From positions 149,137,804 to 149,201,803 of the forward strand of contig NC_090374.1 of the NCBI RefSeq assembly GCF_036365525.1: a stretch of 64,000 nucleotides of DNA, in the 5' to 3' direction. Positions 2,497 through 61,043 of this stretch are shown here, in pieces. The position numbers were made by a program, and so were the translations under genes. The notes under the pieces were generated by a model, which saw only the letters and a program-made list of their open reading frames with translations, had not been told where the DNA came from and did no database searches. Position 1 is the stretch's first letter. Each line of letters opens with the position of its first letter. This DNA comes from Heterodontus francisci. Lineage: Eukaryota.

Positions 2497-2856
2497 TTTT
2501 ATTTTATTTTTTATTTTATTTACAGATACAGCACTGAAACAGGCCCTTCAGCCCACCGGGTCTGTGCCAACCATCAACCACCCATTTATACTAATCCTAC
2601 ACTAATCCCATATTCCTCCCACATCCCCACCTGTCCCTATAGTTCCCTACCACCTACCTGTACTAGGGGCAATTTATAATGGCCAATTTACCTATCAACC
2701 TGCAAGTTTTTTTTTTGGCATGTGGGAGGAAACCGGGGCACCCGGAGAAAACCCACGCAGACACAGGGAGAACTTGCAAACTCCACACAGGCAGTACCCA
2801 GAATTGAACCCGGGTCGCTGGAGCTGTGAGGCTGCGGTGCTAACCACTGCGCCGCC
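2497..2856 (-). mobile_element. tRNA-derived V-SINE (HE1-like) inserted in Copia gag
   Basis: Near-identical to the copies at 35348-35686 and 39850-40208; tRNA-like head; CR1-type tail gggcctgtttcagtgctgtatc. Confidence 0.85.
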
Positions 2857-4970: not shown

Positions 4971-5383
4971 GTGCCAAATGTTGCGACCAGAGTCTTCTAT
5001 AGTTCACAACGGCATTGTGAACATAAAATATAAAACTATCCTCTCCTCTCCTTCCACCCAAAGAGCAAATCAGGAACTCAGATTTATCAAGTCAGAAAGA
5101 CTTTCAACAGGCAGCATGTAGCTGGAACAAACAATTCAAAGTGGAAATTATTAGATTCCCTTATCAACCTTCAGATCTGTTTGTTCCCCCTTAGATTCTA
5201 ATGTCAGAGCATATTTAACCAAACCTTTGTATACCAAATTCCATTCCTTTTTCTTTTATAAAGACACACAAGGTCCTTGCAGCCATGATGAGAATACCTT
5301 CTAACATTTTACAGATATAGAACTTGCCAGGAATTTGAAAAACAAAACCACCAGCAACACCTTTTACAGACCATTAGTATAAT

Positions 5384-5530
5384 CTTTCCTTTTGGGCCTC
5401 CTTATCTCGAGAGACAATGGATACGCGCCTGGAGGTGGTCAGTGGTTTGTGAAGCAGCGCCTGGAGTGGCTATAAAGGCCAATTCTGGAGTAACAGGCTC
5501 TTCCACAGGTGCTGCAGAGAAATTTGTTTG
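5384..5530 (-). mobile_element. 147-bp 3'-end copy of the RTE LINE
   Basis: Almost identical to the 3' end of the element at 61044-63724 (FLCSTCGRAC.SRIGLYSHSRRC plus 3'UTR); 10-bp TSD ttagtataat at 5374-5383 and 5531-5540. Confidence 0.95.
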
Positions 5531-5664
5531 TTAGTATAATACAACAGCAAGAAAGAGCTAGAGAGTGGCATAGATAGGTACAGTCAGAGACAGAGGCAGA
5601 AAAAGAGAGAGGCAGGCAGACAGAAAGAAAGAGAGAGAGAGAAAGAGACATTGAGATAGAGAGA

Positions 5665-9769: not shown

Positions 9770-10262
9770 CCCATTGGCCAATGGGTTTAAGGCCAAAGCA
9801 ATACTAAACAACAGAGGGTCGGCATAGATTTTGATCGCTGGTCTGGGCTGAGTTGGCCGATCACAGGCAGGGCAGCAGTTAAAGCTCTAAAATTGATTTC
9901 CGTGCTCCTGGGCCAGGGAGTTAAAAATCAGCTAGGATTCCTGCTAACCAGGTAATTCTGAAAAGTGTTCGTGCGTAAAAGTCAGGTGGAAACAGGACTG
10001 GGCTCGGCTGTAATTCCCTCCATGGTTAAATAGGCTGACATGAAAACAAGACACGACTAGGCTGTCTGTAGAACCTTACATCATTGATGTCAACCATCAT
10101 GACTAAAACAAATTATATGGTCATTATCTCATTGCTGTTTGTGAGATCTTGCTGTGCGCAGATTGTCAGGTTTCCCACATTATAACAGTGACTATACTTC
10201 AACAAATATTTCAATGGCTGTAAAGCACTTTGCGACATCCTGTGAAGGGGAAAAGTGCTTTC
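9770..10262 (+). mobile_element. Old SINE-like sequence followed by a DeuSINE/L2-type tail
   Basis: Similar to 12785-13100; 3' part matches the tail of the SINE at 48724-49310. Confidence 0.5.
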
Positions 10263-12781: not shown

Positions 12782-13399
12782 GTGAGTCACAAGGACCAGT
12801 AGGACCCAGGCTTGAGCCTCAGTGTGTGCTGTGTTAGCTGATCTCAGCTGGGTCTGTGCTCAAAACTGTATAACTCATCTCATTAGAGAAGAATGTCAGC
12901 TTCAGTCACTGTTACTAATCAGCAGCCAGGGTCCCCATTGGTAATTGCACCAACAATGGGTTGGGAGAGTGTTGAGCCCGGCTGTGATGGTCTTTGCAGT
13001 CAAATAGCCTACCCACACTCACTGTTATAGGTAAATATCAGCCACTTGGACAAGGTGTCTGGGGCCTGTGGAACCAGACCCTACAAAAAGCAACTGGTGG
13101 AGCTGGGGATACTGTACATTATGTACAATATTGATCTCTAGAGGGGGTCTGTGTCTGTGCTGCCACAGAAAGTGTTGATTTGGCTCTTTATTGGGTGTAT
13201 TTGCCAACATTTTGGAGCAGACTTTTTAATAAATATTTGGTCGTGTTTACACTACTTCATGTGAGGGTACATACCCTGCTGAGCTGAACTGAAAGCCACT
13301 AACACCATTAACAATGTATCCACTTCGAGAACTTCATTTTAAGGAGAAAGCCCACCACCACCTTCTCAGGGCAACTAGAGATGAGCAATAAATGCCCGC

Positions 13400-13505
13400 A
13401 ATGGGATTAGTGTAGGATTAGTATAAATGGGTGGTTGATGTTCGACACAGACTCGGTGGGCCGAAGGGCCTGTTTCAGTGCTGTATCTCTAATCTAATCT
13501 AATCT
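13400..13505 (+). mobile_element. 3' fragment of HE1-like SINE inserted in a CR1-group tail
   Basis: SINE tail ending (ctaat)n; aatgccc on both sides; host tail ttctcagggcaact...cccacatcc. Confidence 0.8.
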
Positions 13506-15900: not shown

Positions 15901-16989
15901 TAGTTGATACACAGTTCCCCGTTACAATTTCATGTCTACAACTAGTAATAACCAGTTTCATTTCAATGTTATTATACAAATTGATGCATAAGAAAACTAA
16001 CAGAGGGAATTGTAGTTATAGTTACATAATACTGAACTTCTATGTTGCAAGTTAATTTTGCCCAAAACACAAGCTGCAGTGGCTACCTTTTCTTGTTCAT
16101 TTATGTTGCTCATTGCATCAATGAATAAATGTCTTGGCAGGTGAATTCTGAAGACCCAGTCGGCTCTGACATAGTGTCTCCCCCGTAAGTCAATGAAAAA
16201 AGTTCAGAAGATCGAACAACCATCAACAAACTACACCATTTTTTCAAAGCCATAAAGCTCTTATGTCAGATTTCACTAAGTTCAGGAGTTTCTACTGCCT
16301 GTCTCTGAGCAGCCAGTCGACAGTTTGATCTGGTTGGTCCCTGGTTCTTAATACAAACTGACTCTTAGGGCAGTTAAACTCCAAGCTGGCTGTGGGATTG
16401 TCAATTTCCCCAGTGCTGTATTGGAGAACACAGCTGAAGTGTCAATTTCATTGTCACTTTGTCCTTTCAAACTGACGGGATGGAGCTGAAGTCAGCATGC
16501 TGAGCCAGGGAACTGTATCTGGCAGTAATTAGTAACAATCAAGAGACTAGGAGAGTGCTGACTGCAGCATTTACACAGCCTGCAGGTGTCATTGGCTTGC
16601 AAATGGAAGCAAAGCTTATGAATGCAGCAGGAACTACTAGTTGCTGTGATTCAACCGATTGTCCATTTCTTTCATTCACTAGACAATAGTACAAGTTGAG
16701 ACACTTGGGGCTGGATTTTCAGTCCAGAGTCAGGAACCCAACGCACATATAATTTCCGGGTCCCGACCCCACATCGCGTCAGCATCAGCGATGTGACGCA
16801 ATTTTCATATTCATAGAGGCGAGTTTGGCCTCCAATTAGCAGCGCCAGGAGTGGCCTGAAGGTGGAACCCAGTAACCAAGGGCCCTTCGAAAAGGCAAAC
16901 GGCAGCCATGACTGGGATTGCCATTCTCTGATAAGGTGGAGTAGCAGGAACCTTGGCCCGGCCAGTGCTGGCACAGGCAGGCACCACAG

Positions 16990-18750
16990 TGGCACAAAAA
17001 TTCTCCGATGCCTCCCTGAGGCTTTAACTAATGCAGTGGCAGACAGGACAGAAATCTTGATCCCACTATCTGGAAGAACAAACGCACCTAGAAACACAAA
17101 GAGGGCCTGGATGGAGGTGGTAACAGAGGTCAGAAGCCGAGAAGTGACCAGCAGGACATGAGTCCAGTGTAGAAAGTGATTCAATGACCTGATAAGGTCT
17201 GGAAAGGTGATGGCAAGTGATATCCGGGTGAAAGGTCTTCAACTCTGTATAGATGAGCATGCAGATGAGCTGAGCTGACTGGGTGCCCATAATTCTCCCA
17301 ACATTGTCAGATCAAGTGGCCAGTTGCATCACTGAGCTGTGAGCAACTCTCACATATGGGGCACAATTGAGAAGGGGGCATCACTGAGGAACACAACAGT
17401 TCATGTGAATGTCATGCTGGAATAGATGAATTCCCAGAAATCATTGTCTCCTCATCCTGCACGATGAGGGAGCACAACTCCCGTGAAATGTCTCGGATGG
17501 ATGGTGGTGTGCTGGACCTCCACACTGACCCCAATGGAGGAAGCAGCACTGGAGATTGTGAGGGTGCCACCATGTCAGGCCATGGGCAATAATGAGACGG
17601 GAGGTTGTGAAGTGTAGGGTCATTTGCTAGCTCTATCTTCGGGTGAAGGGTTTGGAGGACACTGCTACCCCTGCGCATGGTGGCTGTACAACCGCTATCA
17701 TCTATAAGGTTGGTTGTACTGAGGCACGTGCTGAGTAGCTGAATTCTCATCACCACCCTCTTGTGTTTCCCACAGGGCCAGTAACGGATGGGAGCAGAGT
17801 GTCCCAGCCCAGTTATCACAGGCCTCCTCGGCAGAGAGAGATGTTCCAGAGCCTGCACCATCACATCATTCCGCCACAACATCCACCAGTGCAGACACAG
17901 TCAACGTGGTTGGACCACAATCAAGATTAGAAGAGGGAGCACTGGGTGAGCAGCACATCATGAGTGAGCAGGAGGAGGAGGGTGAAGCAGAGTCAGCTGT
18001 GGGCCGTCCACCTCGGAGGACGGAGGACAGACACAGCCCTGCTCTGCTGGGCGAAGATGCTGGGCTTTGGGTGTCACCCCCAAGGAGGGTTTTTCTGAAG
18101 CATCAGGGGCAGATGATTTCCCACATGTCGGAGCTCCCTGAGGCATTGTGGAGCCAGGGACAGACAATGGAGGAGGCCACGCAGTGCACGTGCACTGTTA
18201 TGACAGTGGTTTGAGTGCATCAGCTTCTCCATTGAAAGAGTGGCCAACCTCTCAGAGAGCCATATGCAGCACCACTCTGAGTGGGTGCAGGAGCAGTGCA
18301 CTGACATGCACAGGAAGAGTGAGACTCTCTATAGCATTGACTATTCAGTGCCAATGATGGCGCAGAGATGCTTGGAGTGGATGTCAGCTGCGTCCCAGCT
18401 GATGGCCCCATGCAGCATGCAAGGGCACCATGAAAGGGCTGAGGAAGTCGAAGAGGCTGATGAGAGGGCCACCCCTCAGGGGACACTGGCGTCATCCCTC
18501 GCCTCCTCGGCTTCTCAGACTGAGGAACCATCCTTGCCGCAAGGCCCTGTGACAAAGGCTGCCCCTGCAATGATGCAGGTGAGGCAGCCTGTACAGGACT
18601 CCCACAGGCACTTCCAAGACAAGGACAGAAGCCAAGGGCATCTCAGCCGTGAGAAGAGACAAGGGAGCAGGATTCCTCCACCTCATCCTCAGCCACAGGG
18701 GGAGCACCCCATAGGAGCAAACGCAAATGCAAGACGTCACGTCGTTAGTT
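16990..18750 (+). pseudogene. Harbinger Myb/SANT-like DNA-binding protein, spliced, decayed
   Basis: EALTNAVADRTEIL...TKRAWMEVVTEV...RT*VQCRK*FNDL trihelix-like motif; donor after 17206; acceptor ttgtgtttcccacag ending 17775; acidic low-complexity C-terminal part. Confidence 0.75.
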
Positions 18751-19164
18751 GCACTTTATCGGTCACAGTGATGTTTTCTCAATTTGTTTGTTCTTCGACT
18801 TTTACTATAATAATAACTGCTTATGCTTTTGCTCAGACTTGTGTGTTATTATTGCTTGATTTCAAAAGGGAAATGGAGTTTGGGGGTGGGTGAGTGATGG
18901 TGTCGGGGGGTGGGGTGCGGGTACTGAATTTGCTGTAGTGCTTCAGATGTGTGTGTCTGCCGGATGATCTCTTTCTCTGATGGAAGGTGAGCAACAGAGT
19001 CATCTGTCATAAGGGCTGAGCGAAGGTCAAGTGAAACGTTGCTGAATTAGCCACGCCAGCCTGCCCATCGCCTTGAGCCCTGGGATAGCCTTGGTAGTTT
19101 CCCTCCAATGTCTGGGCGCCGGGCACCTCTGGAGCAGGTCCTTTATCCTCCTTCCTCCTCTCAG

Positions 19165-23149: not shown

Positions 23150-24275
23150 GACACTAAGAGGTGAGGCGAGAGTGACTGCCCTTGACATCAAGGCAGCATT
23201 TGACTTGAGTATGGCATCAAGGAGCCTTAGCAAAACTGAAGTCAATGGGAATCAGGGGGATAACTCTCCGCTGGTTGGAGTCATACCTAGCACAAAGGAA
23301 GATGGTTGTGGTAGTTGCAGGTCTATCATCTCAGCTCCAGACATCACTGCAAGAGTTCCTCAGGGTAGTGTCCTAGGCCCAACCATCTTCAGCTGTTTTG
23401 TCAATAGCCTTCCTTCCATTATAAGGTCAGAAGTGGGGATGTTCGCTGATGATTGCACAATGTTCAGCACCATTCATGACTCCTCAGATACTTAAGCAGT
23501 CCGTGTAGAAATGCAGCAAGACCTGGACAATATCCAGGCTTGGGCTGATAAGTGGCAAGTGACATTTGTGCCACACAAGTGCCAGGCAATGACCATCTCC
23601 AACAAGAGAGAATGCAACCATCTCCCCTTGACATTCAATGGCATTACCATCGCTGAATCCCCCACTATCAACATCCTCGGGGCTACCCATTTACCAGAAA
23701 CTGAACAGGAGTAGCCATATAAATACCGTGGCTACAAGAGCAGGTCAGAGGCTAGGAATCCTGCGGCGAATAACTCACCTTCCGACTCCCCAAAACCTGT
23801 CCACCATCTACAAGACACAGGTCAGGAGTGTGATGGAATACTCTCCACTTGCCTGGCATGCAATCCACAAATATTCACTCCCTCCACCACCGACGCACAG
23901 TGGCAGCAGTGTGTACCGTCTACAAGATGCACTGCAGCAACACACCAAGGCTCCTTTGACAGCACTTTCCAAACCCACAACCTCTACCAACTAGAAGGAC
24001 AAGGGCAGCAAATGCATGGGACCACCACCACCTGCAAGTTCCCCTCCAAGTCACACACCATCCTGACTTGGAACTATATCGCCGTTTCTTCACTGTCGCT
24101 GGGTCAAAATCCTGGAACTCGTTACCTAACATCACTGTGGGTGTACCTACACCACATGGACTGTAATGGTTCAAGAAGGCAGCTCACCACCACCTTCTCA
24201 AGGACAATTAGGGATGGGCAATAATTGCTGGCCTAGCCAGCAACGCCCACATCCCATGAATGAATTTAAAAAAAA
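23150..24275 (+). mobile_element. 5'-truncated CR1-group LINE (same family as 35147-38085)
   Basis: ALDIKAAFD, VPQGSVLGPTIFSCF, MFADD; tail cccacatcccatgaatgaa plus A-run. Confidence 0.9.
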
Positions 24276-24689: not shown

Positions 24690-24930
24690 AGAAAAAGCTG
24701 TCGGATTGTGGTAAAAACCCAACTAGTTCACTACTGTCCTTTAGAAAAGGAAACCTGCCATCCTTACCCGGTCTGGCATGTATGTGATTCCAGTCCCACA
24801 ACAACATGCTTGGTTCTGAAGTGCCCTAACAAACCATTCAGTTGTATTAAACCACTACAAAACTGTCCACTTCTCAATGGCAACTGGAGATAAGCAATAA
24901 ACGCTGACCTTTCCAGCAACACCCACATCT
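24690..24930 (+). mobile_element. Head+tail (bipartite) SINE fragment related to the 35147-38085 LINE
   Basis: Matches the LINE 5' region (aaaaaccca.ct.gttcacta..gtccttt...cagttgtattaaacc) joined to the LINE 3' tail. Confidence 0.75.
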
Positions 24931-33468: not shown

Positions 33469-33830
33469 GGAAGATGGTGGTAGTGGCAATGCCACTGAAC
33501 TAGTAATCCAGAGGCCCAGACTAATGCCCGAGGTACACTGGTTCAAATCCCACCAAGGCAGCTGGCAGAATTTAACCTCAATTAATTAATAAATTCAATT
33601 AATTAATAAAAAATCTGGAATTGAAAGCTAAACTCAGTAATGGTACCATGAAACTATCAATTGTCGTAAAAACCCATCTGGTTCACTAACGTCCTTAGGG
33701 AAGGACATCTGGACCCTCAATTGCCCTCTGAAATGGCTTAGCAAGCCACTCAGTTGTCAAGGGCAGTTAGGGATGGGCGATAAATACTGGCCTTGCCAGT
33801 GATGCCCACATCCCATGAAAGAATAAAAGA
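33469..33830 (+). mobile_element. tRNA-headed bipartite SINE (head and tail of the 35147-38085 LINE family)
   Basis: B-box ggttcaaatcc; body homologous to 37780-38085 (minus); tail cccacatcccatgaa; aagaag on both sides. Confidence 0.85.
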
Positions 33831-35146
33831 AGCTTTCACAAGCATATAACAAGGAGGGTAGCTCAAGTAAACGTTGGTCCCTTAGAAGCAGAGGCAGGAG
33901 AAATTATCATGGAGAATGAGAAAATGGCAGAGACATGAAACAAATACCTTGTGTTTGTCTTTACAGTAGGAGACACAAATTACACCAGAAATAAAGGGTA
34001 ACCAAGGAGCCAATAAGAGCGAGGAACTGAAGGTAATCAACATCAGCAGAGGAAAAAGTATTGGAGAAACTTAACGGACTAAAAGCTGACAAATCCCAGG
34101 ACCTGATGGCCTACATCCTAGGGTTCTAAGAGGTAGCTGCAGAGATAGTGGATGCACTGGTTACAATTTTTCAAAATTCTAGAACAGTCCCAGCGGATTG
34201 GAAGCTAGCAAAAGTAAAACCGCTATTCAAGAAAGGAGGGAAAGAGAAAACAGGGAACTACCAGCCAGTTAGCCTGACATCAGTCATCAGGAAAGTGCTG
34301 GAATCTATTATAAGGAAGTCTTAACAATGCACTTAGGAAACAATAGTATGATCAGACAAAGCCAACATGGTTTCACGAAAGGGAAATTGTGTTTCACAAA
34401 CGTATTAGAGTTTTTTGAGAATGTAACCAGTAGGGTAATGGGGAACCAGTTGCTGTAGTGTACTTGGATTTCCAAAATGCATTTGATAAGGTTCCACACA
34501 AAAGATTAATACACAAGATAAGGGCTCATAGAGTTGGGAGTAATATATTAGCATAGATAGAGACTGGTTAACGGACAGGAAACAAAGAGTAGGGATAAAT
34601 GGAGCATTTTCAAGTCGGCAGGCTGAGACTAGTGGTGTGCCGCAAGGATCAGTGCTGGGGACTCAGCTAGTTACAATCTATATTAATGACTTAGACAAAG
34701 AGACAGAGAGTAATGTACCTAGGTTTGCTGATGATACAAAGCTAGGTGGGAATGTAAATTGTGAGGAGGAGGCAAAGAGGCTGCAGAGATATAGACAGGT
34801 TGAGTAAGTGGGTAACACGGTGAATGATGGAGTATAATGTGGGGAAGTGTGAGGTTAGTCTATTTGGTAATAAGAATAGAAAAGCAGGATATTTTTTAAA
34901 CAGCATGAAACTTGTAACTCTTGATGTTCGGAGAGTTTTGTGTGCAATTGTACAAGGAAATGTTAGCATGCAGGTACTGCAAGCAATTAGGAAGGCAAAC
35001 GTCATGATGGCCTTTATTGCAAGGGGACTTGAGTATGAGAATAAGGAAATCTTGCTACAAATTTGGTCATATCTAAGGAAGGATATGCTTGCCATGGAAG
35101 GGGCACAGTAAAGGTTCATTAGATTGGTTCCTGGGATTAGAGGCTT

Positions 35147-38085
35147 CTTTTTTCTTTTATTCATTCATGGGATGTGGGCGTCCTGGCTAGACCAACATTT
35201 ATTGCCCATCCCTAATTGCCCTTGAGAAGGTGGTGGTGAGTTCCAAGAACTGATGCAGTCCTTGGGGTGTAGGTACACCCACAGTGCTGTTAGGAAGGGA
35301 GTTCCAGGATGTTGACCTTGTGACAGTGAAGGAATGGCAATATATTTATTTATTTTTATTTTTAAATTTTTTTTATTAGAGATACAGCACTGAAACAGGC
35401 CCTTCGGCCCACCGAGTCTGTGCCGACCAAGAACCACCCATTTATACTAACCCTACAGTAATCCCATATTCCCTACTACCTACCTACACTAGGGGCAATT
35501 TACAATGGCCAATTTACCTATCAACCTGCAAGTCTTTGGCTGTGGGAGGAAACCGGAGCACCTGGCGAAAACCCACGCGGTCATAGGGAGAACTTGCAAA
35601 CTCCGTACAGGCAGTACCCAGAATCGAACCCAGGTCCCTGGAGCTGTGAGGCTGCGGTGCTAACCACTGCGCCACTGTGCAGCCCGGGTGGTGTGTGACT
35701 TGGAGGGGAACTTGCAGGTGGTGGTGTTCCCATGCATCTGCTGCCCTTCTCCTTCTAGGTGGTAGAGGTCACGGGTTTGGAAGGTGCTGTCAAAGGAGAC
35801 TTGGCGAGTTGCTGCAGTGCATCTTGTAGATGGTACACACTGCTGCCACTGTGCTTCATTGGTGAATGGGGTACCAATCAAATAGACTGCTTTATCCTGG
35901 ATGGTTTCGACTTCTTGAGTGTTGTTGGAGCTGCACCCATCCAGGCAAGTGGACAGTATTCCATCACACTCCTGACTTGTGCCTTGCAGATGCTGGGCAG
36001 GAATTGGGGAGTCAGGAGGTGAGTTACTCGCCGCAGAATTCCTAGCCTCTGACCTGCTCTTGTAGCCACAATATTTATGTGGCTGATCCAGTTCAGTTTC
36101 TGGTTAATGGTAACCCCTAGGCTGTTGATAGTAGGGAATTCAGCGATGGTAATGCCACTGAACATCAAGGGGAGGTGGTTAGATTCTCTCTTGTTTGAGA
36201 TTGTCATTGCCTGGCACTTGTGTGGCGCGAATGTTACTTGCCACTTATCAGCCCAAGCCTGGATATTATCCAGGTCTTGCTGCATCTGGACATGGGCTGC
36301 TTCTGTATCTGAGAAGTCACAAATGGTACTGAATATTTTGCAATCATCAGCGAACATCCCCACTTCTGACCTTATGATTGAGGGAAGGTCATTGATGAAG
36401 CAGCTGAAGATGGTTGGGCCTAGGACACTACCCTGAGGAACTCCTGCAGTGATATCCTGGGACATGATTGACCTCCAACAACCACAACCATCTTCCTTTG
36501 TGTTAGGTATGACTCCAACCAGTGGAGAGTTTGCCCCGATTATCATTGACTCCAGTTTTTCTAGGGCTCCTTGATGCCATACTCGGTCAAATGCTGCCTT
36601 GATATCAAGGGCAATCATTCTCACCTCACCTCTGGAGTACAGCTCTTTTGTCCATGTTTGGACAAAGGCCGTAATGAGGCAAGGATCCGAGTGGCCCTGG
36701 CGGAACCCAAACTGAGCATCAGTGAACAAGTTATTGCTGAGCAAGTGCTGCTTGATAGTATTGTCGCCGACCCCTTCCATCACTTTGCTGATGATCGAGA
36801 GTAGACTGATTGGGCGGTAATTGGCCGGGTTGGATTTGTCCTGCTTTTTGTGTACAGAACATAGCTGGGCAATTTTCCACATTGCTGGGTAGATGCCAGT
36901 ATTGTAGCTGTACTAGAACAACTTGACTAGGGGCGTAGCTAGTTTTGGAACACAAGTCTTCAGTACTATTGCTAGAATATTGTCAGGGCCCATAGCCTTT
37001 GCAGTTTTCAGTGCCTTCAGCCGTTTCTTGATAGCACGTGGAGTGAACCAGATTGGCTGAAGACTGGCATCTGTGATGCTGGGGACCTCAGAAGGAGGCC
37101 GAGATGGATCATCCACTCAGCGCATCTGGCTGAAAATGGATGCAAATGCTTCAGGCTTGTCTTTTGCGCTGAAGTTCTGGGCCCCCCCCCATCATTGAGG
37201 ATGGGGATATTTGTGGAGCCTCCTCCTCCTGTTAGTTGTTTAATTGTCCACCACCATTCACAACGGGATGTGGAAGTACTGCAGAGCTTAGATCTGATCC
37301 GTTGGTTATGGTGGTGGGGGGGGCGGGGGGGTGCATGGGGGGGAGGGGTTAGGTAATAATCAGTAGGAGATTTCTTTGCCCATGTTTGACCTGATGCCAT
37401 AAGACTTCATGGGGTCCAATGTCAATATTGAGGACTCCTAGCACAACTCCCTCCCAACTGTATACCACTGTGCCGCCACCTCTGGTGGGTCTGTTTTGAC
37501 AGTGGGACAGGACATACCCAGGGATAGTGATGGTGGTGTCTGGGACATTGTCTGTAAGGTATGATTCCGTGATTATGACTATGTCAGGCTGTTGCTTGAC
37601 TAATCTGTGAAACAGCTCTCCCAATTTTGGCACAAGCCCCCAGATGTTAGTAAGGAGGCAGGGTCAACGGGGCTGGGTTTGCCATTGTCGTTTCCAGTGC
37701 CTAGGTCGATGCCAGGTGGTCCGTCCGGTTTCATTCCTTTTTTTAGACTTTGTAATGGTTTGATACAACTGAGTGGCTTGCTAGGCAATTTCAGAGGGCA
37801 GATAAGAGTCAACCACATTGCTGTGGGTCTGGAATCACATGTCGGCCAGACCAGGTAAGGACGGCAGATTTCCTTCCCTAAAGGACATTAGTGAACCAGA
37901 TGGGTTTTTAACAACAATCGACAATGGATTCATGGTCACCATTAGACTAGCTTTTTTATTCGGATTTATTAATTGAATTCATATTTCACCATCTGTCATG
38001 GTGGGAATTGAACCCATGCCCCCAGAGCATTATCCTAGGCCTATCACTAATCTAGTGATATTACCACTACGCCTCTGCCTCCCCA
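35147..38085 (-). mobile_element. CR1-group LINE with tRNA-like 5' head, APE + RT, no visible ORF1; internally deleted and decayed
   Basis: Head with A/B boxes at ~38000-38085; APE LLTNIWGLVPKLGEL..QPDIVIITESYL from ~37660; RT ORF 35878-36882 (NYRPISLLS, LDIKAAFD, PQGSVLGP, FADD); 3' tail at ~35150-35230. Confidence 0.9.
35348..35686 (-). mobile_element. HE1-like V-SINE nested in the LINE
   Basis: Full copy of the family seen at 39850-40208. Confidence 0.9.
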
Positions 38086-38529
38086 ATGTCTTATGGTGAG
38101 AGGCTGAGTAAATTGGGCCTATACTCTCTGGAGTTTAAAAGAATAAGAGGTGATCTCATTGAAACATACAAGATTCTGAAAGGGCTTGACAGGGTAGATA
38201 CTGAGAGGTTGTTTCCCCTGGCTGGGGAATCTACAACACAGGGGTACAATCTCAGGGTAAGAGCCTGATTATTTAGGACTAAGATGAGGAGAAATTTCTT
38301 CAAAGAGTTATGAATCTTTGGAATTCTCTATCCGAGCGGGTTGTGGATGCTCCATTGTTGAATAAATTTTAGGCTGAGATTGACAGATTTTTGGTCTCTC
38401 AGGGAATCAAGGGATGGGGGAGCGAGCAGGAAAGTGGATTTGAAGCCAAAGATCAGCCATGAGCGTATGGACTGATAGAACAGGCCATATAGGCTACTCC
38501 TGCTGCTATTTCCTATGTTCTTTTGACCA

Positions 38530-38930
38530 CCGGACATCTCAAAGTGCTTTAAAGCAAATGAAATACTTAATCACTGTTGTAATATAGGAAACACAGGAGT
38601 CAATTTGTGCACAGCAAGCTCCCACAAACAGCAATGTGAATATGACTAGATAATCTGTTTTTGTGATATTGATTGAGAGATAAATATTGTCCAGGATACC
38701 TCCCCTGCATTCTCCAAAATTGTGCCTTGGGATCTTTTACATCCACCTGAAAGGGCAGATAGGGCCTTGGTTTAACATCTCATCCGAAAGATAGCACCTC
38801 CAACAGTGCAACACTACCTTCACTACTTCAGTAGAATGTCAGCCTTGAGTTTTGTGCTCAAGTCTTGAAGTGGGATTTAAACCCACAACTTCTGACTCAG
38901 AGTGCTACCAGCTGAGCTATAGCTGACACG
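38530..38930 (-). mobile_element. DeuSINE-like (SacSINE1-type) SINE
   Basis: Reverse-complement homology to 48724-49310. Confidence 0.7.
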
Positions 38931-39744: not shown

Positions 39745-40660
39745 GGTAATCACAGAATCTTTCAGCACAGAAAGAGGCCGTTCGGCCCATCATCCCTTTT
39801 TGAATGAACTGTCCAATGTTGTCCCCCACCCCACAGTTTTGTCCTCATAGGGGCGGCACAGTGGCGCAGTGGTTAGCACCGCAGCCTCACAGCTCCAGGG
39901 ACCCGGGTTCGATTCCGGGTACTGCCTGTGTGGAGTTTGCAAGTTCTCCCTGTGTCTGCGTGGGTTTTCTCCGGGTGCTCCGGTTTCCTCCCACAAGCCA
40001 AAAGACTTGCAGGTTGATAGGTAAATTGGCCATTATAAATTGTCACTAGTATAGGTAGGTGGTAGGGAAATATAGGGACAGGTGGGGATGTTTGTTGGGA
40101 ATATGGGATTAGTGTAGGATTAGTATAAAATGGGTGGTTGATGTTCGGCACAGACTCGGTGGGCCGAAGGGCCTGTTTCAGTGCTGTATCTCTAATCTAA
40201 AAAAAAAACCCTGCAAATTAGTCCTCTTCAAAACCAAGTCCAATTGCCTTTAAAAGTTCCTACTGAATCTGAACGCACCGCCATTTCAGGTACTTCGTTC
40301 CAGATCTTAACAACACTCTTGTGTGAAGAAATTTACCTCATTTCCACTCCAGTTCTTTTGCTAATTATCTTAAATCTATGACCTCTGGTTGCTGACCCAC
40401 TTTCCAGATGACACAGTTTCTCCCTACTTGCTCTATCAAAACCTTTCATAATTTGGGATATCTCTATTAGGTCTTCCCTCAACCTTCTTTGCTCTAAGAA
40501 CAATCCAAGCCTCACCAATCTCTCCACATAACTAACATTCATCATCCTTGGTATCTTCCTAGCAAAACTCCTCTGTACCCTCTCCAGGGCCTGATATCCT
40601 TCCTATAGTGTGGTGCCCAAAAATGTACACTGTCCTCCAACTGAGGCCTAACCAGATATT
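39745..40660 (-). mobile_element. CR1 3' fragment interrupted by a SINE
   Basis: SYVERLVRLGLFLEQRRLREDLIE..TRGHRFK; 3' tail at ~39750-39790. Confidence 0.85.
39850..40208 (+). mobile_element. Full-length HE1-like V-SINE
   Basis: A box tggcgcagtgg, B box ggttcgattcc, V-domain-like gggtgctccggtttcctcccaca, CR1-type tail. Confidence 0.9.
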
Positions 40661-43467: not shown

Positions 43468-43698
43468 GTTTCCTCCCATCACCAAAAGACTTGCAGGTTA
43501 ATAGGTAAATTGGCCATTATAAATTGCCCCTAGTATAGGTAGGTGGTAGGGGAATAGAGGGACAGGTGGGGATGTGGTAGGAATATGGGATTAGTGTAGG
43601 ATTAGTATAAAATGGGTGGTTGATGGTCGGCACAGACTCGGTGGGCCGAAGGGCCTGTTTCAGTGCTGTATCTCTAAATAAATAAAAAATAAATAAAT
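43468..43698 (+). mobile_element. 5'-truncated HE1-like SINE
   Basis: Near-identical to the 3' two-thirds of 39850-40208. Confidence 0.9.
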
Positions 43699-49088: not shown

Positions 49089-50749
49089 AAGGGAGATATC
49101 TCCATTGTCCTAACCAATATTTATCCCTCAATAAACATCACACAAACAGATTATCCAGTCATTATCACATTGCTGCGTGTGGGAGCTTGCTGTGCGCAAG
49201 TTGGCTGCTGTATTTCCTACATTACAACAGTGACTTCAAAACTACTTCACTGGCTGTAAAGCATTTGAGACGGCTGGTGGTCATGAAAAGCACTATATAA
49301 ATGCAAGTTTTTTTTTCTTTAATCTGTGTTCCTGCTGTTACTGATGGTGGGGACACAGGATCTGCAGAAATGCTTTTTCCAGTTCCTCTCATTGTCAGTC
49401 CATGTTCTTGACTTTTTTTTTCTCTTTAAGCAGATTTTAATCGAAGAACCTACAAACAAAAGTTGAACTGCAATCTTCAGGTTCCAATGTGAACAGTTGA
49501 CGTTGGCCTATTTATCAATTTTGAGTTAGTTAACATGAGTGCAAAGTCTCTTATTGTGGACTGGCATAAGCTAAGAAAAGCCTGGGATATTATTGTGTGA
49601 GCATTTAACACTCATGATATTCTTCTGTCTGCTCTCTTAATGGAAGCCATTAACCCATTTATTTGAAAAGTATTAACTGTCCATGTAATAATATTGCAAA
49701 TTTCTTGACCATTTGTCACTAAATTGCTAACATGCTCTCTTACTTTAACCAATTGAAAACACACCAAAATATTTCATCTTTGATCTGGACAGGCAGTAAA
49801 TAATTAATGCCGCAGCATATCTACTTTGCTCTTAAGTGAAACTGTTTTAATATTCATAATTGTCATGTGGCTCCTAAAAAGCTGTATTTTCCTCAGCTTG
49901 CTAACATTGATGTGAGCATATAGTCAGGGGTGCACAATGTTGGACACTCTCAGCCACCAGTTAGTTGAGTTAGTTAAGTGAGAAAGATATCTCCCAAAGT
50001 GGTGAACACTCACAGTTGAAAACAGGAGGAAGGGGTGGTCACTCCAGTGGCAGGATACGGAAGAGACTGGGGGAGAAAACCACTGTAGCTCCTCGTTTGA
50101 TCCTGAACAGTCAGAGAGTGGGGTATAGAGGGCAAAATGGGTTCACCTCAGACAGGCCTGTTAGATACACTGCAAAGTAAGGTGGTATACTTAACGCCTA
50201 TGGGAAATTGCATCTGAGCTGCAACCTAGCACTGGATTAACTGAAAATAAGCAGTGAGAAGTTCACCCTGATAATTGGAAATAAAAGTAAAATATTTGAC
50301 CTCATAATTTGGTTGTAATCGCTCCCTATATTGGACTAATTTTTGAACCCAGATCCCATGGCACACCAAACTCTGTCTGTACAGAACTAACTGCATCATT
50401 TACCACTTTAGCTCCTTTGGATAAGAACAATTCTTTTGGGCTGTGTATTGTATCAACTCATTAAAGTTCATCACAAATAAAGCGGAATTTAACTCAGTGA
50501 TTTTTCTTTCTTGCTTAACAGGACCATGGCTTTGAGAAAAAGAAAAATGGTATAGCAATCAATTGGCCAATCAATACAGACAGATAGTCAAGGGTGAAGG
50601 ATGAAGCCGAGTTCACTGATAATGGGCACTTCCTTCATTATCAATACTTGTAATAAAATAATAGAAAGGCAACAACTTACTAAAAACCGATCAATCCAGG
50701 GAATCATTCAGTCTTGCAGTTTCTTAACCTTACTGTACAAGATGCGCTT

Positions 50750-51844: not shown

Positions 51845-52180
51845 CAGTGGCTCAGTGGGCAGCATACTCGCCTCTGAGTCAGAAGGTTGTAGGCTATAGT
51901 CCCACTCAGAGACAAGCATATATAATCCAAGCTGATGCCTCAGTGCAGTACTAAGGGAGTGCTGTACTATTGGAGGTGCCGCCTTTCTGATAAGTTAAAG
52001 AGAGGGCCCAGCTGCTCTCTCAGGTGAAAGTAGCAAATCCCTTGGCACTATTTCAAAGAACGACAGGGCAGTTCTGCCTGGTGTCCAGGCCAATATTTAT
52101 CCCTCAAAAACCTAAAAATAGATTATCTGGTGCTAATCTCATTGCCGTTTGTGGTATGCAAATTTGCTGCCACTTTGTCA
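51845..52180 (+). mobile_element. DeuSINE-like SINE
   Basis: Homologous to 48724-49310. Confidence 0.7.
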
Positions 52181-52279: not shown

Positions 52280-53585
52280 TTATTTTTATTCATTCATGGG
52301 ATGTGGGCGTCACTGGCTAGGCCAGCACTTACTGCCCATCCCTAATTGCCCTTAAGGTGCTGGTGAGCTGCCTTCTTGAACCGCTGCAGTCCATCTGGTG
52401 CGGGTACACCCACAGTGCTGTTAGGGAGGGAGTTCCTGGATTTTGATCCAGCAATAGTGAAGGAAGGGAGATATATTTCGACGTCAGGCTGGTGTGTGAC
52501 TTGGAAAGGAACTTGCAGGTGATGGTGTTCCCATGCAACTGCTGCCCATGTCCTTCGAGGTGGTAAAAGTCATAGGTTTGGAAGGTACTGTCAAAGGAGG
52601 CGTAGTAAGTTGCTACAGTGCATCTTGTATATGGTACACACTGCTGTCACTGTGCGTCAGTGGTGGAGGGAGTGAAGGTTAAAGGTGTTGGATAGATTGT
52701 CGATCAACTGAGCTGCTTTATCCTGAACAGTGTCAAGCTTCTTGAGTGTTGTTGGAGCTGCACTCATCCAGGCAGGTGGAGAGTATTCCATCACAATCCT
52801 GACTTGTGCCTTGTAGATGCTGGACAGGGTTTGGGGAGTCAAGAGGTGAATTACTTGCCTCAGAATTCCTAGCTTCCGACCTGCTCTTGCAGCCACAGTA
52901 TTTATGTGGCTGGTCCAGTTAATATTCTGGTCAATGGTATCCCCTAGGATGTTAATGGTGGAGGATTCAGTGATGGTAAAGCCATTGAATGTCAAGGGGA
53001 GATGGTTAGATTCTCTCTTGTCTGAGATGGTCATTGCCTGGCACTTGTGTGGCGCGAATGTTACTTGCCCCACTTATCAGCCCAAGCACGGATGTTGACT
53101 AGGTCTTGCTGCATGTGGAGACAGACTGCTTCAGTTTCTGAGGAGTCGCAATTGTACTGAACACTATGTAATCATCAACGAACATCCCTTCTTTTCACCT
53201 TACAATGGAGGAAAGGCCATTGGTAAAGCAGCTGAAGGTGGTTGGGCCAAGGACACTACCCTAAGGAACTCCTGCAGTGATGTCCTGGGGCTGAGATGTT
53301 TGGCCTCCAACAACCACAACCATCTTATATAGTAAAATAAAAGCAAAATACTGCAGATGCTGGAAATCTGAAATCTGAACCATAACCATCTTCCTTTGTG
53401 CTAGATATGACTCCAACCAGTAGTGAGTTTTGCTCCTATTCCCATTGACTTCAATTTGGCTAGGGCCTCTTGATGCCACACTAGGTCAAAAGCTGCCTTG
53501 ATGTCAAGGGCAGTCACTCTCATCTCACCTCTTGATCAGCTCTCTTGTCCTTGTTTGGACCAAGGCTGTAATGAGGTCTAGAGCC
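52280..53585 (-). mobile_element. 5'-truncated CR1-group LINE (35147-38085 family) containing a 51-bp Penelope 3'-tip insert at 53327-53377
   Basis: RT C-terminal ORF 52657-53073; insert flanked by aacca(c/t)aaccatctt. Confidence 0.88.
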
Positions 53586-54937
53586 GATTAGAATCAGCAC
53601 CTTACTGTATAAACACCAGAATCCTACTCTGCAATCAGCATCATCCTACTATAAAATCAACAGCATCCTACTGTATAATTTCATTATCTTACTGTATCAT
53701 CACCAGCATCCTACTGTACAAACAGAAACAGCCACAGATGTGAATCCAGGATGTTATGTTGCCTCCCTAGTGCCTGGACCAAGGATGTCACTGAGCAGCT
53801 ACAGAGCACCCTGGTGGAAGGGTGAACAGTCAGAGGTTGTGATCCATATCAGAACCAAAACCATAAATAGAAAGAGGGATGAGGTTCTACAGGTAGATTT
53901 TAGGGAGCTAGGAAGACGACTAGCCTGCAGGGCCTCAAAGGTTCTAATCTCCAGGTTACTCCTGATGCCACGTGCTACTGTTTTTGGGGGAGATGGGACC
54001 TGTACAAGCCAGATGGGTTGCACCTCAACAGAGCTGGGTCCATTATCTTCACAGCGCAGTGCTGTTGGGGTGGAATTAAACTAATTTGGCAGGAAGATGA
54101 GAACCAGGATGTAGCATTAGAAAGCAGAATCAAGGTGCACAAAGGATTGGGAGACACAGACAGCACTAAAGTAAGAAATGGTAGGCTTTAGGTGGGGCAG
54201 ACTAAGAGGGAATGCACTAAGGTTGAGGTTAAGTTTGCAGTGCATGTATGTAAACACACAAAGCATAGTAAATAAGGTTGGTGATGTACAGGCTCAGATA
54301 GCCACATCGGAATATGTTGTTGTGGCAATAATGTAGATCAGGTTCAAAGAAGGGCCGGATTGAGTACCAAATATTCCTGGATGCAAGGTGTTCAGGAAAG
54401 ATAAGGAAGGAAAGAAAGCAGGACTATTGATTACAGTACTGGAAAGAGAGGATGTCCTGGAGAGGTCAAGAACAAAATCGCTTTGGTTAGCGTTAAACAA
54501 CAGAGATACCATTACACTCGGGTGCATTCTATAGGTCAGCAACTAGTGGAAAAGATATAGAGGAGCAAATTTGCAGGGAAATTACAGAGAGGTGCAAAAA
54601 CTATAGAGTAGTGATAATAGGGGATTTTAAATATCCTAATATAAACTGGGATAGTAATAGTGTAAAGGGCAGAGAGGGGGAATAGTTTCTGAAGTGTATT
54701 CAGGAGAAAGTTTTGATCAGTACATTTATAGCCCAATGAGGAAGGAGGCATTGCTGAATCTGGTTCTGGGGAATGAGGTGGGTCAAGTGGATCAAGTGTC
54801 AGTAGGGAAAGATTTCAGGAAGAGTTATCATAATATCATAAGGTTTAGGTTGTTAATTGTGTTTAATTGTATGCAGGTGGTGGGCATTAACTGGAAATTC
54901 ACATGTACCCCTTTAATAAGCACGACTAAAACTGTGG

Positions 54938-57306
54938 CTCACAAACAAGAAATGCTGGAAATACTCAGAAGGTCTGGCAGTATCTGTGGAGAGAGAAGCA
55001 CAGCTAACATTTCAGGTCAGTGACCCTTCATCAGAACTGGCAGATATTAACAATGTAAAAGGTTTTAAGCAAGTAAAGCGGGGGTGGGGGGGTGTGAGGG
55101 GCAAGAGATAACAAAAGAGAAGGTGTGGATAGGACAATGTCACAGAAAATAACTGACTAGAAGGTCATGGAGCAAAGGCAAACAGTATGTAAATGGTGTG
55201 CTCAAAGACAAAGCATTAGTGCACATAGGGTGTTAATGGACAGAAAACCGAGCACCCTGGACAGCCCGCTTCTACCTCCTTTCCAAAATCCACAAACAGG
55301 ATTGTCCCGGCAGACCCATTGTTTCAGCCTGTTCCTGCCCCACTGAACTTATTTCTTCCTATCTTGACTCTATTTTTTCTCCCCTGGTCCAGTCTCTTCC
55401 CACCTCCGTGACTCTTCTGACACTCTACGTCATTTTGACAATTTCCAGTTTCCTGGCCCCAACCGCCTCCTCTTCACTATGGACGTCCAATTTCTCTACA
55501 CCTCCATTCCCCACCAGGATGGTTTGAGGGCTCTCTGCTTCCTCCTTGAACAGAGGCCCAACCAGTCCCCATCCACCACCACCCTCCTCCGCCTGGCTGA
55601 ACTTGTTCTCACATTGAACAACCTCTCCTTCAACTCCACTCACTTCCTTCAAGTAAAAGGTGTTGTTATGGGTACCCACATGGGTCCTAGGTATGCCTGT
55701 CTTTTTGTGGAATACATTGAACATTCCTTGTTCCAGTCCTACTCAGGCCCCCTCCCCCACCTCTTTTTCCGGTACATTGATGACTGTATCGGTGCCCTTT
55801 CCTGCTCCTGCCCGGAACTGGAAAACTTTATCAACTTTGCTTCTAATTTCCACCCTTCTCTCACCTTTACATGGTCCATCTCACACACTTCCCTTCCCTT
55901 TCTCGACTTCCTTGTCTCCATCTCTGAGGATAGGCTGTCTACTAATATCCATTATAAGCCCACCGACTCCCACAGCTACCTCGACTACACTTCTTCACAC
56001 CCTGCCTCCTGTAAGGACTCCATTCCATTCTCCCAGTTTCTCTGTCTCTGACACATCTGCTCTGATGATGCTACCTTCCATGACAATGCTTCTGATATGT
56101 CTTCCTTGTTCCTCAACCAAGGATTCCCCCCACTGTGGTTAACAGGGCCCTCAACCGTGTCCAGCCCATTTCCCCCACCTCTACCCTCACCCCTTCCCCT
56201 CCCTCCCAGAACCGCGACAGGATTCCCCTTGTCCTCACTTTCCACCCCATCAGCTTCCACATCCAAAGGATCATCCTGCGCCATTTCCGCACCTCCAGCG
56301 TGATGCCACTACCGAATGCATCTTCCCCTCCCTTCCCCTGTCAGCATTCCGAAGGGATCGTTCCCTCTGCGACACCCTGGGTCCGCTCCTCCATTACCCC
56401 CACCACCTCGACCTCTTCCCACGGCACCTTCCCCTGCAATCGCAGGAGGTGTAATACCTGCCCATTTACCTCCTCTCTCCTCACTATCCAAGGCCCCAAA
56501 CGCTCCTTTCAGGTGAAGCAGTGATTTACTTATACTTCTTTCAATGTAGTATACTGTATTCGCTGCTCGCAATGTGGTTTCCTCTACATTGGGGAGACCA
56601 AATGCAGACTGGGTGACCACTTTGCGGTACACCTCCACACCTCCACTCAGTCCGAAAGCATGACCTCGAGCTTCCGGTTGCTTGCCATTTCAACACTCCC
56701 CTTTGCTCTCATGCTCACATCTCTGTCCTTGGATTGCTGCAGTGTTCCAGTGAACATCAACGCAAGCTTGAGGAACAGCATCTGATTTACCGATTAGGCA
56801 CACTGCAGCCTGCCGGACTGAACATTGAGTTCAATAATTTCAGAGCATGACGGGCCCCCCTTTTTATTTTTAGTTATTTTTTTCTTTTTTTGTGTGTGTT
56901 TATTTTATTTTTGTTTGTTTCTACTGTGCCTACCCACTGTATTTTTTCTTGTTTGTGCTTGGGGCCAGGCTGCTCAGTTTTCTGTCCATTAACACCCTCT
57001 CTGTACTAACTATTTGTCTTTCAGCACACCATTAATATACCATTTGCCTTTGCTGCATGACCTTCTGGTCAGTTATTCTCTGTGACCTTGTTCTATCAAC
57101 ACCTCTTTTGTTATCTCTTGCCCCACTCCCGCTTTACTCGCTTGAAACCTTTTACATTTCTAATATCTGCCAGTTCTGATGAAGGGTCACTGACCTGAAA
57201 CATTAACTCTGCTTCTCTCTCCACAGATGCTGCCAGACCTGCTGAGTATTTCCAGCATTTCTTCTTTGTGTTTCAGATTTCCAGCATCCGCAGTATTTTG
57301 CTTTTA
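54938..57306 (+). mobile_element. Penelope-like retroelement: 5'-truncated RT + GIY-YIG, with inverted 5' pLTR copy
   Basis: [38 protein letters not shown]; C..RRCNTC; VVYCIRCSQCGFLYIGETK; stop at 56850. 54941-~55250 is the reverse complement of ~56970-57270. 11-bp TSD taaaactgtgg. Confidence 0.95.
57172..57208 (+). ncRNA. Minimal type I hammerhead ribozyme in the pLTR (inverted twin at ~55003-55038, minus)
   Basis: agtt-CTGATGA-a-gggtc/act/gacct-GAAAC-att-aact: stem I agtt/aact, stem II, vestigial helix III, as known for Penelope pLTRs. Confidence 0.8.
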
Positions 57307-58530: not shown

Positions 58531-61043
58531 AATCAGCATCATTTTACTATGAAATCACCAGCATCCTGATGTACAAACAGCATCACCTCACAGTATAATC
58601 TTACTGTATGACCATCATCTTACTGTATAACCAGCATAATTTAATGTAAAATCCCCAGCATCCTACTGTATAAACAGCGTCATCTTACAGTAAAAACACA
58701 AGCATCCCATTGTACAATCAGCAACACAGCACGGTAAATCATCAGCATCATTGAATATCAGCAGCCTTTTACTGTGAAATCAGCATAATTTTAGTGTATA
58801 ATCACAAACATCTTACTATATAAGAATCATTTTACTGTAAACTCACCAGCATCATACTGTATAATTACCATCATCTTGCAGCAAAATCACCAGCATCCTA
58901 CTCTGAATCCCCAGCATGCCACAGTAACTAAGCATCATTCTACTCTAAAATCAGAAGCAGCTTACTGTACAATCAGCACCATCTTACTGCATAATCAGTA
59001 TCATCCAACTGTGATGGTAGTGAATTTCTTGAGTGTGTCCAGAATTGTTTTCTGCAAGAATATATCTGAGAACCAATATGGGGTAGGCCATATTAGATTT
59101 AGAAATGAGGAATGGGCCAGATTTAGATATTAGACTAAAGCTGCTAATAGTGATCATAATATGGTTTAGTTCAACATAGCATTTGAAAGGGAGAAACATG
59201 AAGCAGCTACTAAGGTTCTAGATTTAGGTAAGGCTGACTTCACTGCTATGAGGCAGAGACTGTCCACTGTAAACTGGACAAATCTGTTAATGGATAAAAT
59301 GGCAGAAGATCAGGTAAAGATGTTCAAAAAAGAACCAGTATATACTCCTAATGGGCAAGAGATTTACTTGCCAAAAAATACAGCCGTGGATCACTAAAGT
59401 GGTCACAGACATAAAAGTAAAAGAAAAGGTATAGAAAAATGCAAAAAAAAGGGCAGATTCTGGTGAATAAAAAAAATACAAAGAGCAACAATGGGTGAAA
59501 AGCGGATAGTAAGAACTACAAAAAGGAAATATGAAAAGAAACTTGCAAGGAATATCAAAATCAACATTAAAAAACTTTTACAATTACATTAGGAAAAAGA
59601 GGGTGGTCAGAAGCAATGAGGGCCCCTTGAAAACTGGTAAGTCATCAATAAAAATAAGGAAATGGCAGACACACTGAACAATTAGTTTGTTTCAGTATTC
59701 ATAGTACAGGAAGAGGGCAGCATGCCAGACATCTGAAGGAACATATTATTGAATCTGGGACAGGAACACAACAAAATTAACATAAGCAAGATAACAGAAA
59801 TGGAGAAATTGATGGAGCTAAAGAGCAACAAATCCCCAGGACCAGATGGTTTCCTCCAAGGGATATAAAAGAAATAGGTGAGAACATTGCAGATGCCAGA
59901 AATATAATCTTCCAAAGTTCTCGCAATTTGGGAACTGTTTGTTTAGATTGTAGAATTGTGCATGTCACTCCGCTATTTTTAAGAAAGGTGACACAGGGAA
60001 ACCAGGGAATTATAGACCAGTTAGCCTAACATTTGTTGTAAGGAAATAGCTTGAGTCTGTAATTAAGGATAGGGTGACTGAACACCTTAAACATTTTCAG
60101 CTGATCAGAGAGAGCCAGCATGGATTTGTAAAGGGTAGGTCATGTCTGACAAATCTGATTGGTATTTTTTGAAAAGGTGACTGAAGTAGCAAACAGGGAA
60201 ATGTCTATGGATGTTCTTTATATGGATATCCAGAATACATTTGATAAAGTCCCTCATAAAAGACTATCAGCTAAAGTTGAAACTCATGGAATTGAAGCCA
60301 AATTATTGACCTGATTAGGAAATTAGCTGAGTGGAAGGAGACAGAGAATAAGGATAATGAGCAGGTTCTTTAATTGGCAGGATGTGACTAGCGGCATCCC
60401 ACAAGGATCTATGTTGGGGCCTCAACTATTCACTGTAATCACTGACGATTTTGATGATGGGATAGAAAGCCACATATCCAAATTTGCTGATGGTACAAAG
60501 ATAGGTGGCATTGTAAGCAGTGTAAATGGAAGCATAAAGATTAAGTGTATGGGTAAAAATGTGGCAAAATGGATTTCAATGTAGGCAAATATGAGGCCCT
60601 CCACTTTGGACATAAAAATAACAGAACAGGGCATTTTCTAAATGGTGAAAAGCTAGAAACAGTAGAGGTGCAAAGAGACTTCGATGTCCGGTACACAGAT
60701 CATTAAATGTCATGAACGGGTACAGAAAATAATCAAAAAGCCTAATGGAAAGATGTCCTTTATATCTATAGGAATAGAATGCAAGTGAGTAGAAGTCATT
60801 CTGCAGTTATACAAAGCTCTCGTCAGACCACACCTGTGAGCAGTCCTGGACACCACGCCTTAGAAAGGATATATTAGCGTTGAGGAGGGGGGTCAGTTGG
60901 GGGGGGGGGGGCAGAGTGCTGTATACATTTACCAGAATGATACCTGGATTCCAAGGGTTAAATTATGAGGAGAGATTACACAAAAATCCCTGGAATTTCA
61001 AAGGTTAAGGGGTGATTTGATCAAAGTATTAAGAGGATTAAGA

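Follow-up and report, generated by a model that had tools for sequence, protein, structure and literature searches.

The textbook assigns RNA polymerase II (Pol II) to LINEs and RNA polymerase III (Pol III) to SINEs. A LINE carries its own promoter, and where its RNA began can be read from full-length copies; the uncapped RNAs made by Pol III are poor mRNAs. R2, a single-ORF LINE, lives on uncapped non-Pol II RNA through co-transcription with rRNA, for which it needs host Pol I and a ribozyme, and its translation from uncapped RNA offers an analogy for the element described here. Cassandra and the TRIMp3 elements carry a Pol III promoter within a retroelement, as we propose for a LINE, but TRIMp3 encode no protein. 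In bipartite SINEs, Bov-tA and SINE2-1_ACar among them, a tRNA head is joined to a LINE 5' part and a LINE 3' part (Kojima 2018, PMC5786205); there the head sits on a non-coding, deleted LINE (RTE or Vingi), whereas in the shark element it sits on a coding one. RTE-1_DAn and elements related to it are LINEs in which a tRNA-like sequence is said to lie, with position and role not given (PMC5786205). They belong to the RTE clade, unlike our element, and as a precedent they limit its novelty.

The closest described elements are the Zenons of the CR1 group, reported from five elasmobranchs and described there as universally without ORF1 and with a poly-A tail (Stuart et al. 2026, PMC13343379, main text and supplementary tables). 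The top insertions in the main Zenon families of four sharks measure 3.2-3.3 kb, and shark and ray genomes hold hundreds to thousands of long copies each (denominators 59-2,313 in Table S3 of that paper). Few of them keep an intact ORF2: 3 of 612 in stingray and 1 of 1,419 in whale shark. Zenons of hagfish, coelacanth (CR1-5_LCh) and Lepidoptera, and two metagenomic loci retrieved in our scans (L001 and L082), share the single ORF and the lack of ORF1 with our element; unlike it, they have no tRNA-like head that we could see. Persaeus, a short element of a lepidopteran Zenon, represents repeated 5'-plus-3' deletion products with direct repeats at the breakpoints (PMC6740152). Persaeus is reported there to be without tRNA homology or a Pol III promoter, whereas the putative shark deletion products described below inherit a candidate promoter.

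Here we analyze a window of 64,000 nt from the shark Heterodontus francisci that holds one copy of a tRNA-headed coding LINE, and we find this architecture to be real and family-level. Sequences of headed Zenons are already in print, as the original prediction had allowed when it supposed that a repeat library might hold the element without a Pol III reading; the consensus set of PMC13343379 does. The reading itself has apparently gone unremarked: the main text of PMC13343379 has no match for tRNA or promoter and, as far as that source goes, no mention of the head, its boxes or short derivatives, and in the text of a whale shark preprint CR1-Zenon is named a single time and tRNA finds no match. 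Our literature search, with most subscription papers, Repbase and Dfam outside it, returned no tRNA-headed Zenon and no Pol III-driven autonomous LINE. If true, an abundant LINE running on a tRNA promoter would break the division between LINE with Pol II and SINE with Pol III, would represent a natural 3.3-kb Pol III RNA that has to be translated, and would give SINEs with LINE-derived bodies a direct origin, reversing the usual model.

Head, ORF2 and tail as a single insertion into an older CR1

The focal LINE spans 38084 to 35147 on the minus strand. It opens with a tRNA-like head with type-2 Pol III boxes (37995-38084), followed by a 5' UTR body (37765-37994) that is common to short SINE-like copies and holds no Deu domain, an A-rich linker with an Arg-rich extension of the ORF2 frame (37658-37764), the N-terminal part of an APE endonuclease (37352-37657) and the remainder of ORF2, comprising a linker, the RT and the beginning of the C-terminal part (35686-37307). 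Past a nested SINE, ORF2 runs on to a stop near 35213 and is followed by a short 3' UTR and an A-rich tail (35147-35347 in all). The RT is recognized by Pfam RVT_1 (E 5e-32) and by tblastn with proteins P0005 and P0013. The APE, which starts at 37657, is recognized by protein matches and by Pfam Exo_endo_phos at E 0.005, under the curated cut-off; the APE search gave four matches, one of them a Scyliorhinus protein. Given that the APE begins about 110 nt past the end of the body (~37765; ~120 bp in the original prediction), the element has no space for an ORF1, as had been claimed. About 430 nt lie upstream of the APE, and ~320 nt of these are head and body.

The copy is dead and decayed, but was once full-length. 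Some 700 nt are missing between APE and RT (residue 104 to 341 of P0005), and the ORF2 remainder carries stops, frameshifts and small deletions, with joints near 35829-35938 in contigs of the sequencing runs. A C-rich run at 37340-37310 coincides exactly with the ~700-nt deletion. Two predicted shark proteins, P0001 (RGM-family domain) and P0004 (SLC6-type transporter), contain a piece of the focal APE, which reflects either a gene-model artefact or exonisation.

The head carries an A-box-like AGGCGTAGTGG at 38074-38064 and a B box at 38014-38004, 49 nt after the A box, both on the minus strand. The LINE begins 10 nt upstream of the A box, which puts that box at +11; this is type-2 Pol III spacing (A box near +8, B box 30-60 nt later). 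A tRNA-like head at the start of the minus-strand element, part of the original prediction, is therefore present. Its likeness is presumably to tRNA-Thr(AGT). ARAGORN calls no tRNA at the head of this decayed copy, and the Rfam tRNA model recognizes there just 15 nt of T loop at E 0.17, which is under its threshold. SINEBase asks 60% identity or more with a tRNA across 60 nt before a head counts as tRNA-derived, and cautions that A and B boxes give an indication and no proof. A scan of the window for paired A and B motifs gives seven matches in five places. The focal head and the short copy at 33477 account for two of these places, and a different SINE family, in three copies, for the rest.

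Both flanks of the element belong to a CR1 on the plus strand. Its left half (34130-35146) is interrupted within ORF2 at the tail of the focal element, and in its right half (38085-38490) ORF2 continues about one codon later; with another CR1 of the window as query, the left flank stops at about residue 124 and the right flank restarts at residue 127. Because the flanks are one ORF2 split at one codon, head, ORF and tail entered together, so that head, APE, RT and A-rich tail are a single insertion into an older CR1. A search for a target-site duplication of the focal element found none that was convincing.

Logan contigs matched to the focal element at 80% likeness cover all 30 of its bins in each of four sequencing runs. 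Contigs that bridge APE to body occur in two other organisms (run X5 record 30, 37503-37833; run X10 record 14, 37550-37808); they are at least two among the matches listed, which are 32 of nearly a million pieces, and speak for presence only. Reads cover the head 10-70 times less deeply than the body, so either heads vary beyond the 80% threshold or most or many copies are without the focal head. We considered the coverage of all 30 bins in run X15 as a sign of expression and rejected it: the RNA nature of that run is a guess, and neither strand nor start is visible.

A tRNA-like head shared by shark and ray Zenons

Comparison with Table S2 of PMC13343379 covered the first 400 nt of each of 1,003 CR1-group consensuses. 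Two short words of the window body, an 11-mer and a 17-mer, match six rows each, and jointly exactly seven elasmobranch Zenons: CarCar, RhiTyp, ScyCan and HypSab Zenon-1 and SquAca Zenon-1, -2 and -3. In these first 400 nt, head and body open all seven consensuses, and by eye the same linker follows. By eye also, the A box is intact in all seven, beginning 6-11 nt from the 5' end, and the B box in six, the stingray's looking degraded. Six B-box variants match six rows among the 1,003, all elasmobranch Zenons. Across these consensuses of sharks and a ray the boxes are kept while the intervening sequence drifts. The head is absent from the first 400 nt of two hagfish and one coelacanth Zenon consensuses. 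The head is thus a family trait of shark and ray Zenons and no chance adjacency. That head-then-ORF2 might be the common 5' structure is borne out by the split CR1, by the bridging contigs and by these seven consensuses.

Could a chance SINE lie beside a truncated LINE, or the shared start be an artefact of consensus extension, and no family feature exist? Only one of the three window copies of the LINE reaches the 5' end, and two bridging contigs stand among the matches listed. Against this stand the host CR1 split at one codon, the identical junction in the consensuses of five species and the 3.2-3.3 kb top insertions reported for four sharks, and we consider such an origin very improbable. 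The other two window copies of the same LINE are both 5'-truncated; they lie at 23157-24275 on the plus strand (87% to the focal copy) and at 52284-53613 on the minus strand (85%).

On sequence grounds the focal element is an elasmobranch Zenon LINE, a single-ORF element of the CR1 group. It has a single APE-RT ORF and no ORF1, and A-rich ends are found on all three window LINE copies and on the short copy at 33831. As far as the source shows, it shares with the elasmobranch Zenons of PMC13343379 the 5' 400 nt, judged by eye and from exact motif matches, the lack of ORF1, APE and RT, an A-rich tail and a length of ~3.3 kb, and differs in being a deleted, decayed copy that bears a SINE. It is no SINE in the sense of a short, non-coding element, given its coding APE and RT; only the derivatives at 33475 and 24699 are of that kind. 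Nor is it a canonical CR1, for which an esterase ORF1 is typical, and the canonical CR1 of the window falls outside the clade of the focal RT. The best relatives of the focal RT are proteins 41-46% identical to it, of ~930-990 residues, many encoded on contigs of 3.1-4.8 kb. An RT tree was built from 133 rows, taking the 70 best of 120 proteins, the 60 best of ~160 loci and three sequences of the window. In it the focal RT stands on a long branch of its own within a 76-row clade (SH-aLRT 99) that includes L001 and L082; no row is labelled Zenon.

A loss of ORF1 through capture of the head finds no support, since Zenons are universally without ORF1 and the headless relatives L001 and L082 also lack one; their ~1 kb of 5' sequence contains no ORF above 55 codons and no tRNA. 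The missing ORF1 is ancestral or general to Zenons, and head capture is not its cause.

Scans of metagenomes and genomes gave 160 loci at 26-41% identity, with no shark copy among them. Head and body compared with these 160 loci yield only two 21-nt matches at chance level (E 0.18), an A/B-like pair is found in one (L063) of the 97 loci with a long upstream region, and ARAGORN finds nothing in the 17 loci that it scanned. DNA patterns and the RT alignment have no matches in viral contigs. By eye, distant Zenons seem to share short 5' UTR motifs unlike the shark head (L001 400-480, hagfish Zenon-2, L082 540-600), and the motif in L001 400-480 appears as a repeated unit. Loci L081-L160 include many bacterial and archaeal MAGs with intact eukaryotic LINE ORF2s, which are likely to be host contamination.

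Oligo-T content, polymerase and start of translation

The original prediction counted a single T4 run in the sense strand outside the nested SINE, near 37133, and we find it at 37136-37133, the only one in 2,583 nt of the focal copy. Against 5.0 expected from mononucleotide shuffles this is low (p 0.037); against 3.2 expected from dinucleotide shuffles it is less so (p 0.13). Runs of T3 or longer number 10, compared with 22.4 for mononucleotide shuffles (none of 300 as low, p < 0.004) and 16.8 for dinucleotide shuffles (p 0.007), and the observed/expected ratio for TTT is 0.55. Runs of A are normal. Among 107 fetched LINE ORF2s of at least 1,800 nt, one has an observed/expected ratio as low for T3 and two for T4. 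For five-mers with four T the focal copy shows no depletion (10, with 13.4 expected, p 0.20), with p 0.09 and 0.04 in the other two LINE copies, and use of Phe codons does not differ significantly between the focal LINE and the window's RTE (p 0.12). The six T4 runs of those two copies are all private to single copies, and the three-copy majority has none against 1.5 expected in 1,228 nt; the copy at 52 kb alone has five T4 runs, three of them inside an inserted stretch.

The neighbouring elements had been described as richer in T4. This is so for the four CR1 pieces of the window (4.8-7.3 per kb), but the RTE, at 1.5 per kb, carries what its composition predicts (4 against 4.3). Among relatives, L083, a GC-rich member of the Zenon clade with its 5' end missing, is as T4-poor as the focal LINE; L001, L082 and other headless Zenons have normal T-run density. 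By eye, none of the seven elasmobranch Zenon starts carries a T4 run within its 400 nt, and the hagfish and coelacanth starts carry T4 or longer. The proposed purging of terminators has partial support, in that the TTT deficit is clear but the T4 deficit borderline, and we regard purging of T runs in the lineage of the focal LINE as suggested by these counts.

Is the head, then, a working promoter for the whole element? Since the LINE begins with a tRNA-like promoter piece, transcription by Pol III is likely, and we lean towards the head serving as the internal Pol III promoter of the entire 3.3-kb element, Pol III initiation being the simplest account. Backing for this candidate role comes from the 5' end at a tRNA-like distance before the A box, from the retained boxes and from the few T runs. 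Weighing on the other side are the T4 deficit, which is not significant against dinucleotide shuffles, the equally T4-poor L083, the lack of an in-frame AUG, the degraded B box of the stingray and the low depth of the head.

Rather unlikely, in our estimate, is that the head forms the family's 5' end while Pol II produces the coding RNA, starting either at a promoter within the body or as read-through from the host, with the boxes kept as an open, TFIIIC-bound start region or solely for short derivatives. LINEs are regarded as Pol II units in the literature, a cap would solve translation, the moderate T-run deficit may reflect composition, as in L083, and the body may be a native Zenon 5' UTR. 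However, in their published starts the consensuses of five species terminate shortly ahead of the A box, in the manner of a tRNA gene, whereas Pol II read-through would leave ragged or extended 5' ends. The same consensuses show the boxes persisting in LINE master lineages despite drift between them, and even in a capped RNA the sole AUG beside the APE is out of frame.

That AUG, at 37734 in the linker, opens a 44-codon upstream frame shifted one base from the APE frame, and by eye the stingray Zenon consensus has the same offset within its published start. No AUG in the APE frame occurs between the last in-frame stop and the APE. An Arg-rich stretch stands in the ORF2 frame upstream of the APE, as in relatives, and in L001 and L082 a Met in frame stands 22-23 residues upstream of the APE motif. 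To judge from the reading frames, translation of ORF2 would need a non-AUG start, a frameshift or reinitiation under either polymerase; translation is the chief obstacle to the Pol III reading. UUG as a general start was rejected: it is in frame at the 3' end of the focal body and, by eye, out of frame in the published starts of the whale shark and dogfish consensuses. Folding of head, body, linker and tail gives no significant structure (z -1.25 to +0.39), so an IRES-like or frameshift structure is without support, and our literature search on translated Pol III RNAs returned nothing relevant.

With Pol III as the polymerase, we envisage the following course. A single joining event, probably a template switch, would have given a tRNA-derived head to a Zenon that already lacked ORF1, no later than the ancestor of sharks and rays. 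The boxes would be bound by TFIIIC, and the body, poor in T runs, would let Pol III pass; the uncapped Zenon RNA would have its ORF translated with no in-frame AUG to start from and would serve as template for target-primed reverse transcription, and internal deletions of the headed LINE would yield ready-made SINEs. Taken whole, as a history across sharks and rays of an autonomous LINE transcribed end to end by Pol III, under selection against oligo-T, with an ORF2p made from AUG-less uncapped RNA and SINEs arising by deletion, this is a tentative scenario that we hold possible rather than probable.

Short SINE-like copies and neighbouring repeats

Two short SINE-like copies, probable derivatives of the LINE, lie in the window on the plus strand: one with head, body and tail and a first type of junction (33475-33831), and one that is 5'-truncated, with a second type of junction and ~20 nt of LINE linker kept (24699-24930). 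The focal body matches them at 33480-33757 and 24699-24861 with 68-76% identity. Both share body and tail with the LINE, the copy at 33475 also the head, and their tail begins a few codons before the ORF2 stop. Similar 12-mers flank the deletion gap, junctions are of at least two types, and contigs of the sequencing runs show joints of 37757-37803 to 35222-35288. The short copies look like internal deletions of the focal LINE; the differing junctions, the linker remnant, the bordering 12-mers and the joints fit repeated internal deletion better than capture of a whole SINE. On this basis we infer the order of events between LINE and short copies.

The original prediction had the LINE capture a SINE/tRNA promoter. 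That the LINE carries a head throughout its family stands, but capture of a whole SINE is doubtful because the short elements look LINE-derived. An existing SINE of head and body might nevertheless have become attached to a Zenon truncated at its 5' end; the short copies would then be that older SINE, and either polymerase would be possible. The body is commoner than the APE in four runs, template switches between SINE and LINE are documented, and nothing like head and body stands within the first 400 nt of other Zenons' consensuses. Yet the junctions are of at least two types, one with ~20 nt of LINE linker, similar 12-mers border the deletions, and Zenons repeatedly spawn internal-deletion derivatives, as the Persaeus account reports (PMC6740152); we hold a SINE-first fusion to be unlikely, though not negligible. 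Annotation is affected as well: in shark repeat libraries the short derivatives and the LINE will be mistaken for one another, their 5' ends being common to both.

A different tRNA-headed SINE with a Deu-like centre lies at 38920-38525 on the minus strand, 440 nt upstream of the focal element, with similar copies near 10090-10244, 49115-49283 and 51872-52154; it is probably SacSINE1. SacSINE1 and the DeuSINEs are tRNA-headed shark SINEs, and the Deu alignment resembles this stretch without likeness to the focal body. The body had been considered as a Deu domain or SacSINE1 and was rejected, being by eye unlike the alignment published in Fig. S4 of PMC7245038. A Deu 14-mer has one exact match in the window, at 38778-38791 (chance expectation 0.53 at two mismatches).

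The SINE nested in the focal LINE (35348-35685, minus strand) is tRNA-headed, has its own A-tail and is unrelated to the LINE; we take it to be V-SINE/HE1-like. It is 80-94% identical to four other window copies (39851-40206, 2496-2853, 43468-43693 and 13353-13493). It is absent from the LINE copy at 23157-24275, and the joint 35317-35689 occurs in all four runs. Coverage of its family is deep in X1 and X15 and the middle is nearly absent in X5 and X10, so the family is lineage-restricted and younger than the LINE.

Elsewhere in the window, an RTE-type ORF of 898 codons (60969-63662, plus strand) has no stop, which marks its LINE as young and possibly intact; close to its end, 152 nt are 98% identical to 5383-5532. 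Judged by eye, Penelope-like RT fragments, labelled from their translation, lie at 55368-56521 (plus strand), integrase-like and gag-like ORF pieces at 3-857 and 2047-2547 (minus strand) belong to a probable LTR element, and ORF pieces at 16817-18890 (plus strand) resemble the Myb/SANT protein of a Harbinger-type transposon.
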